62,758 bases of DNA from Perkinsus olseni (GCA_013115125.1 JABANN010000021.1:62001-124758), one strand, 5' to 3'. Shown: positions 45,504 to 57,500, counted from the stretch's first letter. A program made the numbers and translations. The notes: a model not told the origin generated them from the sequence alone.

Positions 45504-48500
45504 GTACCGTGATAGTGTTATCATCCTCACTGAAGGAGTGGAGTTTTGCCAAAGTAGTTAATGCAGGGAGAGGTGGCAGGCTACTCATCGTCTCAGGATT
45601 TTTTATATCGCATGATGGAAGTTGATGGCAGGGATAAACCGGAGCAGAGGGGATTCATCAATAAGGCAAGAGCTGCAGTGGAGAAGCACAAAAGGAGATT
45701 GACTGGAGTATCGTCAGTGGGACCGGTATTATGGGGTTATTGGTGCAACCTCTTCCGCATCTTTCCATCTCGACTTCAGGATACTCATGCGTATCATTGT
45801 CAGGGGCTTGGGGGGAGGCCTTCAGTCTTGACCCGGCAGATGTCTCGATTCAGTCTAAGCGAAACGCCAGCCCAGGGACCATCATCGCTGGGATTCAGCG
45901 ATCTCGAAATCGTAATGTTGATGGGCCTTACGAAGTAGACTCAACTGGGTTGCAACCTACTGAAATACGAACGGTCGGGGGTGCTGCGGCCGCCCGTTCC
46001 GGTTCGGGAAAAGGGGCCCAGAAACGTCACCGGGAACATCCTCGGACGCTGCGTTACAGAGGGGCGTGAATTCGTGAATTAGCGGTTCGTAAAATTCTAT
46101 CGCGTAGAGATAGGGGGGAGGGGCTGATCATACCCAGTGGCTCCAAGACAGCTCTTGGTGTGAGGGGTCTCATAGGTCGCCTCTTGCGTAGTATATTATG
46201 GTATCCTTCGCTGTGCGCAGATACGAGGGTTGGATGCATTGGCACCAGTGAGGAGTGATGGTACTCAAGCTATAGATCAATCGTCATCAGATCTGCTGGG
46301 AGGTGTCCATCAAGATGATACGGACGCGAAGGATATCAAACCCTGCTTTGATGCTATGTAGTCGCCCACTGGCGGGGGAGAATTGGGTCAGAGTAGATTC
46401 TTCTGTTCTGGCGTACTTATAATGAGTTGGACCTCACTCGGGCTGTGCTTCGATGAGCTACGGCTTGTCGCATTGAGGGATTTCGAACAGCGTGGTGTAT
46501 CAGGAGGGAGAGGGAGAGGGGGGGGGGAGCTGTGGCGACCTTTGTGCGCCACTAGCCTCCTGGTAGACGCTCCTACCGAAACTCAATCCGACCTCTCTCC
46601 CGATTTCCGCTTCGCAAGGCGCTATTCGTAACGGCGTAATCTTGCAATCGGTAGGGTTGTTGTGGTATTACTTTCAGGCCTCCAAACTCTCAATTGGAAG
46701 CTAAAAGGTATCAAGCCTGCTTAAGTCTCAAAGATATCGCGGCAAGCTCGCCAGAGCACTTCGCTCTTTATAAGCCGGTATTCTTACAGAGGGTGTGGAC
46801 AGTCATACTGGGAGAGGGGCATAGAATAGTGAGCCAAAGGACCCGGGTTCTATCCCATCACACTTCATTTTTAGTCTACTCGTCGAGCAGCGGTGCTCGC
46901 CTTGCAAGCATCACTGCCCATCTCCCCTCCCACTCACAAGGAATCTAAGGTCGAACCAAGCGAGTGGTGCGTCTGGCCCCTGGCGATAGTGGGCAGGACC
47001 CTCGATGATTCCATTCAAAATGGAGCCTCGTCCAATACTGCTGTGAAGGCGATGGCCTGCTCGATGCCTCGACCCAAGCGGACAGAGGCGGCCATACAGG
47101 GCAGCCTAACCGTACTGGGCGCGATGGTGGACGTTGGAGGTAATACAAAGGCAGGAAATCAGTCCGAGTGTTCAAAGACCTGTCTCTCCTGAGCGTCAGG
47201 AGCGCTCCCAGGGTCAGGGTCTTTAGGGATGTTGAATTCAATCTTGAGAGCGCATTTCGGAGGGGCAGTCTATTGAACGCCGGCGGTGGTTGTGGAGGAG
47301 AATCTTTGCGCGTGCGTGGCGTGGTGAGAAGATACGATCAGGTCCGACGGTTCGATCTGATTTGCTGTACTGGCTGAGGCTCACGCTGCGCTATCGGCGT
47401 TCTAAATGGAAGAGTGTGGTCCAAGTCGTGGATAAACTCCTGGCAACTTTCGCGGAGGCCAGCCCGGACGTCTTCGCTTCATGCGGGGACGAGGCTGTGG
47501 GGCATCTCATAACGGAGGCGGCTGGTATGGAGGATTACTGCGGTCCGGAAGGGAGACCGGCTGCGGTCAGCGCAGTAAGGTTTGCGGGAATCGAACTCGG
47601 GTCTTTCGGGTTGTTAGGTTGACGTGTGGACTATCGTACTATTTTGACTGTGGAGACGCTTCGTGTTTCAGCTTGCCCAAGTGTGTGTAGCCGAGGGAGC
47701 TGGGCATATTGCCCCGTACGAGAAGAGTGTCATCAGCTGTGTCGAATCGATACTGGCGGAGGGAGACGTTAAAGCGGCAGTAGAGCGGAAGGCCAGCGGG
47801 GGTAGAGTCCAAAACCACTGTCATAATCTTGCCATACCACACCATTCAGAAACTTCGCCCAGCGGTCGAACGGACAGGCTCTATCGGCTGCATCAGAACA
47901 CCCTAGAGTGAGTATCAGTGGCCTGGGGGGGGCATCGTGCGGATCCGACAACGACGTCTTGCCCTACGATAATCCTGTCGCCGCCGGTATTGTTAGGAGA
48001 AATCGTCGGACATGGAAGTTTCACAGCTGGTGCTTCCTTCTGCTTCGTCCCTCTCTTGTAGTAGTGGTCATATAGCATAACTTCTTATGTTAAGCCTTTT
48101 GGTAGTGCTGGAGCTGTCAGACTGAATTGCCGCGGGGTTCAATGAATCGATGATCCTGCATGTGAAGAGCTTGTAGGTGCCTCGGGAAGTTGGCGGAGAC
48201 GGTTGGATCGAGGTTGGCAGGGTACTTCGAGGATGGTAAATTGGTGTGTCTGATGTTCTCGGCGGGCCTAACGCCAGCAGTACTGGAGTCTGTATGGGAT
48301 TGTTGTTACTACTGCGAACCAGCGGTAGGGAGGGCGGGTGGGTGGAGGGATTGGATCCAGCTGATGCGCTTCATTCTCAAGTGGGAGGGGATCGCTCGGG
48401 TCATCCGGTCGAGCTTTTGAACGGTCTCGGAATTGTCGACAGTTTGGGCAGACCAGTTGGTTGCTATGGACCTGGAAGGGCGTTATAGAATCTTTTCAGT

Positions 48501-54500: not shown

Positions 54501-57500
54501 GATGCTCGCAATGCCGCTGCGTTGTCTGGTGGGAGCCCCTCCCCTGCTCCTGCTGGTGGTGATGACGCCATGTCCTTCGAGGGCAGCTTCTATGCGGCTA
54601 TACTGGCCATACATAAACAGCAGTACGGGAGAGCCTTTAAGCTGGTGAGGCGGAGTGACGAATCTTCGTCGTGCGGCTTGTCTCGTATCTTCGCTTTTGC
54701 GAATAGCTCGGATGAAAGTGCACCTCACAGCTGATGCTCTCCAATATGCACTTTGAATTTCTTTCTGTTGGACGCACGGTATCGCCAGCCGGTATGGGAG
54801 TTTTTAGGAAGAGATCCCAACAACTTTCAGATGATAATTTATTTTATACTTTATCGCTTCTTCAGATTTACCGAAGTCGAGACAGCTTGGACGGCGAGCT
54901 GACGGCCCTTATCGGTGAGAGCTACACTAGAGCGTACCGATGCCTTATCAAAGTACAGCAACTCACCGAACTTGAGGAGATTATCAAGTAGGATGGAGAT
55001 GAATCAAATGTTGTTAACATGATGACGCTTCGCTCCGCTAAGATACAAACAGCTGGAAGATACTGGTGACAGTCAGAGTTGCTCGCTGATGCGCGATATG
55101 TGGACGAGACGCCTGCTGGGTTGCAGACCCGACGTAGAGGCTTGGCGATCTATTTTGGAGCTTCGGTGGGTCGTGGGTTCGAATCCGGGGTCTGACACCT
55201 GTTCATTTTCAGGACATTAGTGGTACCGCCTCGTGAGGACTTGACGACGTGGTTGAAATTCACAGGTAAAGAGGTATCTTAGGTCGATCCGTGTAAGATA
55301 CACAATCTCCTTCTCAAGCTCTTTGCCGGAAGTCTGGTCGTCTGTCCCTGGCAACCAAGACGATTGACATGCTTCGTGCTGACTCGACGTTGAAGCGAGA
55401 TCCAGTGGTGACCTGGGAGTACCTCAAGAACCTCTACGCTAACGGCAGTAGATGGGAAGCTCGGGACATGCTGCAGGTGATCAGCTCTCTGTGCTCTGCC
55501 TTCTACATGGCTTGCGATCTATCATTTATGATTGTAGTAGTATCTTTTCATGCTGACATCACTCATGAGAGCTCATCTCGGCCTTTGGATACGCGTGTTC
55601 GTATCCTCAGTCGTTCCTTCAACAACACGGTGCGGTGGTGAACCCTGATCTCATCATAGACGTCGGCACCGGCGTACCCTCCGCAGTTCTCCCATCGCCG
55701 CGTTCGAGGAGGATCGGTAGTCCTGGCGGTAGAAGGCGGAGGCGCGCTGCTAGCTCCTTCTCACAGTCACAGGTGAGGGCGCTGGGCTCGCAATCTGAAG
55801 GCGCAGGTTCGATTCGCGGTCGGGGTATTTTCCAGGTTCCGATAGAGTTGCTCTCGAAATGTCATCTAAAGATGGGCCTTTGGACCAAGGAGCTTGCGGA
55901 GGACTTCTTGCAGGTAGGCTCGGAGATCGCTACACTGATGCGATCGAATTTCGTGGCGCAGCGGTCACCCCTGATGCGGCGACGTTGGCGTTTGACGTCG
56001 AATACCTTTGGGTTGCCTGGCTCAAGCCTGTCTTGTAGCCCCGGAAATTCGGGGCGCGCGAAAGTTTTCACCTCGAATGTTCACGGGCATCTCTTTCAGA
56101 CGTCCTTCTTCGAGGACGAGGGAGTGTTGGAGAACGTTCTCGGATGGTTCGAGAGTGCCATCAAACTCAATCCGAAATACTACAAAGGTCAGTGATACCG
56201 CCGGGCGCGCGAGATTTACATCCACATCTGGGAGAGTATTGATGGTCGGAGTGTGGATGCTGGACTGCTTCGCTCCGCCTTTTTTGGACCGTTTTTCATT
56301 CTGTTCAGCATGGAATGCGTGGGCGTTGGCTAATTATAATGCTGTAACGTACATTGAGAATCAGCATCGAGGCTCGGGGGCATCGAGCCCGAAGGGAGCG
56401 CCCGCTGGCGACGGACTCAGTGACAGGCGTAAAGCACCGCCGCAACCACAGTCGTCAGGTGAGATGGGCGATCTTCGGACGGAGTCGGTGGTTCTTCGTG
56501 TATTCAACGCAGTTGGGTTGGGTAGATGGATAGTATCCGATGCACCCGAGTTCGAATCCTGGCTACGTCGTTTTTGCGGGCAGGTGTTCTGGAGGAGTCG
56601 AAGCCGTACCTCTTGAATGCTCTACGAGGATTCACGAAATCGATTATTCTTAGTGACCCTCCCCAGCTGCAGGTAGGCCTGCAAAAGAGTCACGCGCCAT
56701 GAAATTGCTCGCTCAGGATGTCCTGCGGCTGATAACGCTGGGGTTCAAATACAGCGGTGACAGCGACTTGGAACTAGAACTTCAGAAAGGCTTCGACCAA
56801 GCTCCTCTGGTGGCCTGGCTCCAGGTCAGTTTATTATCGATCACGTGATCGATTTGGATATTCCCAATATCATGGCAGGTCACACCTCAGCTCATTGCTC
56901 GTCTCCGTAGCAAAAGGCAGTCCTTGCGGACGACCGTGCATCAGCTACTGTCTCGGGTTGGCGTCACGTAAGTTGAAGTCGTTCTACGGTCCCGCTGAAA
57001 TCGCTTCCACGCCGGCTCGCCAACTCTGCTGTGGTCATTCATATCGATCTGCGTTTAACCTTCGCGAGCGCTAACTGATTCTAATCATCATAAAAATGAT
57101 CTCTGTTTTGACCGGGCTCCCTGAAGATACCCTCAAGCGCTCGTATTCCCTCTCACTGTGGCGACGCGGAGTAGCGTGAGCACCTTCGTTATCAGCAGCA
57201 AACGGTTGTTGCAGGAGATATCGGTAGGTCGATGTCCATGCATCATCATTGGTGGACTGGATACGCCCTCAGACGCATCGGAAGACCCTCGTCCAACAGA
57301 ACCAACTGGTATCTTCTGAGCTCATCAGGATATCTATGCTATGGCATGAGATCTGGTGAGTACACGACATCAGCCTAGGGTGGGGGCTTGCGACGGGAGT
57401 CCCGGAGGACGTGTGGAGGTGTCGGGAATCTTTGCAGTGCGCTGCAGACGGCTAGCGGGGTTCAATTCTGATCAGTCCGACTTAAGTCCGATTTTGAGCG

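Follow-up and report, generated by a model that had tools for sequence, protein, structure and literature searches.

Can the 3′ end of a tRNA gene become an intron? The question is raised by a stretch of 62,758 nucleotides of Perkinsus olseni DNA (GCA_013115125.1, JABANN010000021.1:62001-124758; hereafter the window, with positions counted from its first letter), in which the TOR kinase gene is interrupted by many short introns. A first-pass annotation had claimed that at least 11 of these introns contain pieces with the T loop of a tRNA gene. Twelve such pieces were found where it had placed them, each in a different intron out of the 60 of the gene, six in sense and six in antisense orientation, as it had also described; two further copies are located at 10–12 kb, within or a short way upstream of a gene resembling KDEL receptors (Table 1). 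All copies were counted within this one window of one Perkinsus species. The coordinates of the claimed segments were right. Three of the pieces occupy only a portion of introns of greater length (97, 125, and 73 nt). By the corrected boundaries, 47575–47617 lies within 47575–47671, 56545–56575 within 56459–56583, and 46838–46873 within 46829–46874.

The pieces are intronic

The TOR locus was recognized by an open reading frame (ORF) piece matching the FRB domain of mTOR in solved structures and by tblastn, where TOR homologues aligned across 49.2–61.0 kb; the interval 46221–61020 is the part of the mRNA covered by RNA contigs. Contigs of four runs were aligned to 46000–61500: X15, which is recorded as RNA, X7 and X9, which are presumed to be RNA, and X8, the type of which is not on record. 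The contigs match the locus in the manner of one spliced mRNA, ~8.7 kb in length, in many pieces with 61 GT..AG joints, 15 of them with coordinates. The locus-spanning contigs were 8,775 nt (X7), 8,763 nt (X8), and 8,615 nt (X9) long, those of X15 being shorter. Two of the claimed introns were confirmed by joints seen in all four runs (47574 to 47672 and 52315 to 52362, corresponding to introns 47575–47671 and 52316–52361), while contig pieces beginning at 46875, 50662, and 51542 set the 3′ ends of three more.

The other seven claimed introns come from a gene model constrained by the coordinates of the contig records, which gave exact exon lengths between anchors, and by the number of exon letters in each 517-nt bin, which was obtained by dividing the mean depth of the bin by the contig depth (X7, X8, and X9 were concordant where no extra contig added depth). 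The dynamic programme allowed only GT..AG introns and an open frame, and these numbers had to be matched within 4 nt. The fitted model has 60 introns, as compared with the 61 joints in the contigs, with a median length of 57 nt and a range of 41–412 nt. Its fit was exact for the bins 49102–49618, 49619–50135, and 50136–50652 (159, 157, and 211 intronic letters), which hold five of the claimed introns. Unconstrained gene models, which skipped or over-extended exons, were dropped, and a model constrained by length alone was superseded once the bin counts were applied. In blastp, the spliced product gave long alignments to TOR homologues, and 11 of the 12 junctions fell inside alignments to at least two references each. 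From the contigs, the constrained model, and the blastp alignments across the junctions, we concluded that all 12 segments are intronic.

In all four runs, 204–255 contig letters 5′ of 46221 had no match in 46000–46220, thus the TOR mRNA includes either one or more additional 5′ exons from elsewhere or a leader of another kind.

The pieces form a family well above chance

The consensus GTTCRANYC occurred 26 times in the window against 8.66 ± 3.18 times in shuffled controls, none of the 100 shuffles reaching 26. TOR contains 13 exact matches, 12 in introns and one at the first base of an exon; the flank-sharing TOR copies are 10 of these exact matches plus two one-mismatch copies from the earlier list. 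All 12 TOR members of the family are intronic, while introns make up 42% of the gene (P = 3.4e-5). A TTTT run starting 12–14 nt past C61 (tRNA numbering) was found in eight of the 26 exact matches in the window, all of them family members, and in none of the 14 non-family matches, at a background of 0.008 per site. A weight matrix made from the flanks only gave the copies 3.2–18.7 bits in a leave-one-out procedure, and 11 of the 14 exceeded 6.5 bits, which was the 99.9th percentile among 16,023 null sites. When all 14 copies were combined into a profile, no 15th copy was detected in the window: the next match scored 7.7 bits, whereas 30 shuffles gave null scores of up to 12.2 bits. We therefore take the observation as real and well above chance.

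The copy at 12012, the highest-scoring of the 14, lies in the putative intron 11996–12045, which was predicted from Pfam matches and reading frames: PF00810 matches the exon ending at 11995 and an upstream exon, and the ER-lumen-receptor match reaches profile position 141 of 143. The 14th copy (10117–10150) is laid out like the antisense TOR copies, with GT..AAAAG, the complement of the acceptor strand, the complement of the T arm, and ..CAG.

A further intron, 58455–58502, which is confirmed by RNA contigs, has the unusual donor GTTCGA, and a B-box-like GGTTCGAGCC lies across its exon–intron junction without the family flanks.

Anatomy of the pieces

When the 14 copies were aligned by anchoring on G53, each piece corresponded to tRNA positions 44–73, that is, the variable loop, the T arm with the B box, the 3′ acceptor strand, and the discriminator. 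On the 5′ side of the core A44 (10/14), C48 (13/14), C50 (12/14), and G52 (11/14) are conserved, followed by G53–C56 and A58 (each 14/14), C61 (13/14), and C62 (12/14), and on the 3′ side by C72 (11/14), A73 (8/14), and T74–T77. We take these columns to be the positions that are near-universal among tRNAs, where C72 pairs with the common G1 and A73 is usual. Columns 66–71 are almost without information, and the pairwise identity across 66–73 was 0.31 as compared with 0.25 for random sequence. Nine of the 14 copies have a TTTT run, which begins 12 nt past C61 in six copies, after 13 nt in two others, and after 14 nt in the ninth; the 12-nt spacing is the sum of four letters from the stem, seven from the acceptor, and one for the discriminator. 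In three copies (50104, 51503, and 10141) the T run is on the strand opposite the host gene, where AAAA stands just past the 5′ splice site, thus the run is part of the element and not a pyrimidine tract. The interpretation of the pieces as 3′ portions of tRNA-type genes, with oligo-T at tRNA distance, is supported.

The core is present in all copies, exactly in 12 and with one mismatch in two. The T stems, as had been described, are often broken: pairing is complete (5/5) in only two copies, with a mean of 3.07/5, and 61.4% of the cells are paired against 65.1% ± 3.4 with shuffled partners, 458 of 500 shuffles being as high. Since the stems pair no better than shuffles, either the copies have decayed or their sources were already not true tRNAs. 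The stretch 50243–50277, cut at position 44, gave three Rfam matches, each of them weak: one to tRNA (model positions 43–71 of 71, 12.3 bits, E = 1.3), one to the tRNA-like mascRNA, and one to a plastid leader with GGAAUUGAACC in its consensus, which we read as an antisense T loop. The nature of the pieces as 3′ ends of tRNA genes is well supported.

The pieces are not working tRNA genes. They have the acceptor 3′ strand, the discriminator, and the oligo-T; the full cloverleaf with a 5′ half was not found. They are 3′ parts only, with a ragged 5′ start between tRNA positions ~27 and ~44, and past the T run (columns 78–86) no sequence is common to the copies. ARAGORN detected no tRNA gene in the window, and the A-box pattern occurred 40 times in the window against 43.3 expected, none of these being upstream of any copy. 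The 121-nt stretch 56455–56575 gave no Rfam match, consequently the 125-nt intron does not hold a full tRNA-like gene.

In two antisense copies, the place of the anticodon loop (49591–49597 and 51514–51520, minus strand) reads CTCTCAT and CTTTCAT if the variable loop is 4 nt long. The anticodons would then be CTC and TTC, which belong to one amino-acid box; no 5′ strand that would match the stem is present, and the reading is only a lead to a possible source tRNA.

The pieces abut splice sites

In all 12 TOR copies the piece has its terminator end right at a splice site, which is the 3′ one for sense copies and the 5′ one for antisense copies. The distance from position 73 to the nearest splice site is −1 to 15 nt: in the six sense copies 7–15 nt separate it from the intron end, which is the length of the T run plus (Y)AG, and in the six antisense copies its distance to the base with which the intron begins is −1 to 13 nt. 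At the other side, position 44 is 2–82 nt from the opposite splice site. The element reaches one end of the intron in 12/12 copies and both ends (within 2 nt) in two. In line with the claim that they fill most of an intron of 40–80 nt, the pieces make up the bulk of many introns of 46–63 nt: positions 44–77 occupy 27–74% of the host intron and at least 54% in nine of 12. Seven of the 12 host introns are 46–51 nt long, the shortest intron of the gene being 41 nt. Phases 0, 1, and 2 are represented by 7, 1, and 4 host introns as compared with 25, 14, and 21 for all 60.

In sense orientation, the TTTT of intron 46829–46874, whose core has one mismatch (GTTCTATCC), begins 12 nt past C61 and merges into the TAG 3′ splice site, while the TTTTT of intron 49688–49736 is directly followed by CAG; in intron 55166–55212 part of the variable loop coincides with the 5′ splice site, GTGGGTC. 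In antisense orientation, the 5′ splice sites of introns 49562–49608 (GTAGGTC) and 52316–52361 (GTAGGTG) are the exact complement of acceptor positions 72–66, the discriminator is 1 nt from the 5′ splice site in intron 47575–47671, and the terminator run of intron 50075–50125 appears as AAAA right after its GTAG 5′ splice site. The terminator of intron 51472–51544 is 13 nt past C61, and the piece in intron 50606–50664 has one core mismatch and no T run.

Related copies and subfamilies

Several copies resemble each other outside the B box. Over positions 59–78, the pairs 49708/50252 and 49708/56550 scored 11 and 50252/55807 scored 10, values that were reached in none of 1,820 shuffled comparisons, and 50104/51503 scored 9; over positions 33–52, 49581/50104 scored 11 and 49581/51503 scored 10. 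In a blastn comparison among the introns, 50075 and 51472 were identical at 16/16 positions and 49562 and 50075 at 16/17. The two intact T arms (5/5) differ by a change on both sides of pair 51–63 (G-C versus A-T). The copies therefore belong to subfamilies and do not represent 12 independent captures. The claim that they derive from different isotypes and not from one recent short interspersed element (SINE) consequently holds in that the acceptor positions are near random, and does not hold insofar as several pairs are related. We read the pattern as that of a few related sources, each of which would have been copied more than once in both orientations before the copies decayed.

A second contig of X8 matches the window only to 47605, exactly position 44 of an antisense copy, and then diverges, which hints at a near-identical copy of this element elsewhere.

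Origin of the pieces and of their introns

The explanation towards which we lean, with modest confidence, is that the pieces are dead 3′ relics of tRNA-type genes of RNA polymerase III (Pol III) that created, or now make up, minimal introns in an introner-like manner. They form a diverged, dispersed family with several subfamilies, occupying 12 of the 60 TOR introns in equal numbers of both orientations. Their 3′ end is fixed and their 5′ end varies (positions ~27–42), which suggests that a primary Pol III transcript, or the gene, was copied from its 3′ end with 5′ truncation. In sense copies the T run is the pyrimidine tract right before the AG, and in antisense copies a GTAGGT-type 5′ splice site is provided by the acceptor strand or the trailer, read as its complement; the fragment may thus carry usable splice signals in either orientation. 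A copy landing in coding sequence could then be spliced out as a minimal intron of 46–60 nt and would create an intron in this way. That the fragment is itself the intron is favoured by the splice-site ends in both orientations, the filling of minimal introns, and the recurrence in a second gene; that the fragments created the introns is plausible from the anatomy. A metagenome scan for orthologous DNA returned only two loci, with 42% identity over 39 residues. More tentatively, the pieces may represent an undescribed class of intron-generating elements in Perkinsus, 5′-truncated copies of tRNA-type Pol III genes, from variable loop to terminator, that are spliceable both ways and would have seeded about one-fifth of the introns of TOR, an essential gene, with B boxes under constraint, for example by TFIIIC binding; we think this fuller proposal rather doubtful.

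Several results weigh against the relic explanation. No covariation in the T stem was found among the 14 copies by column shuffles. An Rfam search of the whole window at E ≤ 10 gave no tRNA match, and that obtained with the cut stretch was weak. Direct repeats across the junctions had a mean length of 2.53 as compared with 2.45 when re-paired (P = 0.11), therefore no insertion signature was detected, although target-site duplications could have been lost from old copies. The open frame of the model (2,823 codons) was forced by the fitting and so is not independent evidence. In addition, the flanks have changed far more than the B-box core, a difference that would not be expected if dead copies simply decayed neutrally.

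The pieces could instead be passengers, inserted in pre-existing introns that later shrank around them by deletion pressure. We regard this as unlikely. The missing target-site duplication signal, the old look of the copies, and the three copies in longer introns (73, 97, and 125 nt) with unrelated sequence would all suit such a history; however, seven of the 12 host introns are so close to the 41-nt minimum that beside a 34-nt element no room is left for an older intron, and the abutment on splice sites in 12/12 copies, antisense ones included, is not what random insertion and trimming predict. Nor do we give much weight to coincidence, in which a motif of the GGTTCGAA type, itself close to a palindrome, would mimic a tRNA 3′ end in combination with common splice signals such as GTAGGT, a T tract, and CAG. 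Most 5′ splice sites here are indeed of the form GTAGGT, which in four copies coincides in part with the “variable loop” or the “acceptor”, T runs are expected ahead of 3′ splice sites, and the core is nearly palindromic. Such a coincidence leaves aside the A-run complement of the terminator at tRNA spacing in antisense copies, the conserved C48 and C72, the AAAGGTC-type variable loops away from splice sites, the enrichment over shuffles, and the leave-one-out flank scores, and this reading, already disfavoured, appears very improbable.

A separate possibility, compatible with either origin, is that selection keeps the B boxes as extra-TFIIIC sites acting on chromatin or Pol II passage, or as some other DNA or pre-mRNA motif. 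Its appeal lies in the conservation of the core, which had been pointed out in the first-pass annotation: copies with 0, 1, and 2 core mismatches number 12, 2, and 0, while the flank columns keep the consensus in ~70% of copies and thus differ in ~30%. Of the 159 sites with one mismatch in the window, none but the two known copies scored at least 9 in the flanks, and the best flank score among 1,358 two-mismatch sites was 6.7, so none of the latter has a good flank, but detection was partly through the core, and the power of detection by flanks only is limited by small numbers. Differences within related pairs fall outside positions 53–58. The retention of the B box fits either constraint in place or source genes that keep the box as their own promoter and give rise to young copies. 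Moreover, the host introns are not extra stable as RNA (mean z = 0.38 versus −0.25 in other introns, P = 0.34; not above shuffles), and a hairpin role is therefore unsupported. We consider maintenance by selection improbable on balance. As to TFIIIC, the pieces keep the B-box consensus without a Pol III gene, as is expected of extra-TFIIIC sites, and the binding is putative, with a small hint in its favour.

Relation to known systems

According to the main text of PMC12130899, introners derive from DNA transposons with terminal inverted repeats, LTR (long terminal repeat) and non-LTR retrotransposons, Helitrons, and Cryptons, and families are filtered by orientation-matched similarity up to both intron ends; such a filter may overlook introns like those of TOR. 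The words tRNA and SINE and the stem Perkins- do not occur in the main texts of PMC9860276 and PMC12130899, whose supplements may list Perkinsus, and a literature search returned nothing relevant that connects Perkinsus to this type of introner or to introners of tRNA origin. A family common to introns of unrelated genes and reaching the intron ends was found here in 12 TOR introns and, at the KDEL-receptor-like gene, in one putative intron and one further putative copy. As in introners, a repeat family makes up whole short introns in unrelated genes, with many copies per gene and splice signals partly provided by the element, whereas the unit here is a 34–45-nt 3′ fragment of a tRNA gene, present in both orientations, without a duplication signature and highly diverged. 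If the gain is confirmed, the pieces would be a variant of the introner theme.

Like tRNA-derived SINEs, the pieces have a tRNA-type Pol III origin, keep the B box while the stems decay, and are dispersed in introns both ways. Unlike them, they do not have the layout in which a tRNA-related head carrying both boxes precedes a body and a tail: neither the A box nor the 5′ tRNA head is present, nor a body or a tail of the long-interspersed-element type, the end being formed by the acceptor strand, the discriminator, and the terminator, and no target-site duplication was seen at the pieces. With the mammalian tailless tRNA retropseudogenes (PMC5322556) they have in common that partial copies of tRNAs or unprocessed tRNAs were made without an A tail and with breaks in single-stranded regions. 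The retropseudogenes are 5′ complete and 3′ truncated with flanking duplications of 8–35 nt, according to the same paper; the present pieces are the reverse, 3′ complete with a trailer and 5′ truncated, and duplications were not seen.

Extra-TFIIIC sites resemble the pieces in being lone B-box consensus sequences without a working Pol III gene. To our knowledge, no such sites have been reported as constituents of introns, and neither an acceptor strand nor a terminator is required of them.

Other features of the window

Table 1. Introns with tRNA 3′-end-like pieces and further mapped features; positions of the piece are tRNA positions.
Feature	Coordinates	Strand	Positions of the piece	Basis and remarks
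TOR kinase gene	46221–61020	+		60 modelled GT-AG introns; stop codon 60976–60978; FRB match, tblastn, contigs, blastp
46-nt intron, sense piece	46829–46874	+	44–77 = 46838–46871	Contig piece start 46875; exact bin counts
97-nt intron, antisense piece	47575–47671	+	44–73 = 47576–47605	Joint in 4 runs
47-nt intron, antisense piece	49562–49608	+	44–73 = 49561–49590	Constrained model, bin exact
49-nt intron, sense piece	49688–49736	+	44–77 = 49699–49732	Constrained model, bin exact
51-nt intron, antisense piece	50075–50125	+	44–77 = 50080–50113	Constrained model, bin exact
46-nt intron, sense piece	50241–50286	+	44–77 = 50243–50276	Constrained model; T stem 5/5
59-nt intron, antisense piece	50606–50664	+	44–73 = 50619–50648	Contig piece start 50662, junction ambiguity ≤3 letters
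73-nt intron, antisense piece	51472–51544	+	44–77 = 51479–51512	Contig piece start 51542; T stem 5/5
46-nt intron, antisense piece	52316–52361	+	44–73 = 52315–52344	Joint in 4 runs
47-nt intron, sense piece	55166–55212	+	44–77 = 55168–55201	Constrained model
63-nt intron, sense piece	55773–55835	+	44–77 = 55798–55831	Constrained model; TTTT then CCAG
125-nt intron, sense piece at 3′ end	56459–56583	+	44–77 = 56541–56574	Constrained model
Putative 50-nt intron of KDEL-receptor-like gene, sense piece	11996–12045	+	44–77 = 12003–12036	Pfam PF00810 exons, frames
14th copy (10141)	10117–10150	−		Upstream of KDEL-receptor-like gene; putatively intronic
AGCGGAGCGAAGC intron, one orientation	49171–49225			
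AGCGGAGCGAAGC intron, one orientation	49350–49406			
AGCGGAGCGAAGC intron, one orientation	53739–53790			
AGCGGAGCGAAGC intron, one orientation	58319–58376			
AGCGGAGCGAAGC intron, other orientation	54988–55042			
AGCGGAGCGAAGC intron, other orientation	56188–56308			

Short words recur in other TOR introns as well: 33 of the 60 have one in common with another intron (blastn-short, E ≤ 0.05, no shuffle control). Six TOR introns carry a motif of a second family, AGCGGAGCGAAGC, which is likewise found close to a splice site and in either orientation. Since loose ends of other contigs at 55027, 55045, and 56268 adjoin the motif, it is probably dispersed in the genome. Its interpretation as a tRNA 5′ half or a fragment of a small nuclear RNA was rejected, as Rfam gave no support and the D-arm reading does not fit. 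The 19-nt word GAGAATCTTCGCTGTGCGC is found in inverse orientation in introns 57775–57831 and 58615–58660, loose contig ends of three runs adjoin it at 57807, and related 10-mers lie outside TOR at 4942, 5733, 5873, and 46206, with one 10-mer at 9236. Palindromic ATCGATCAC-TGATCGAT words are present in introns 56825–56878, 58765–58809, and 50355–50469 and in the intergenic segment 9950–9975. Intron 58765–58809 folds far better than shuffles (z = −3.37), and intron 58615–58660, which carries the different word GAGAATCTTCGCTGTGCGC, has z = −3.96.

Outside TOR, a BEL/Pao LTR retrotransposon at 28642–34824 has an intact ORF of 1,916 residues with Pao peptidase and integrase, which begins inside the first of two 187-nt repeats that are 99% identical. 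The intact element shows recent reverse transcriptase activity, with no link to the pieces proven. Its terminal repeats were checked for a primer-binding site that would reveal a Perkinsus tRNA 3′ end, and none was recognizable. A near-perfect 74-nt hairpin at 18356–18429 matched a microRNA-precursor model on both strands, far below the gathering score, and is probably merely a palindrome. The 60-intron TOR gene shares the window with an intronless SPX/SLC13 transporter gene (6960–9884, 939 codons), whose 939-residue product (7065–9881) shares 87% identity with a protein of Perkinsus marinus and 89% with one of P. chesapeaki.

Implications

The origin of new spliceosomal introns is an old open question, and the introners known so far are transposons. 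If the relic explanation is true, tRNA-type fragments would give minimal introns in either orientation, from a source that has no transposase-coding parent of its own, and debris of Pol III genes would be linked to the structure of Pol II genes. Should the B boxes be under constraint, TFIIIC-type sites would lie inside the introns of a central growth-control gene. The elements are short and recognizable, so the idea is directly testable across Perkinsus species, where, if true, it would help to explain the presence of intron-rich genes beside intronless neighbours.

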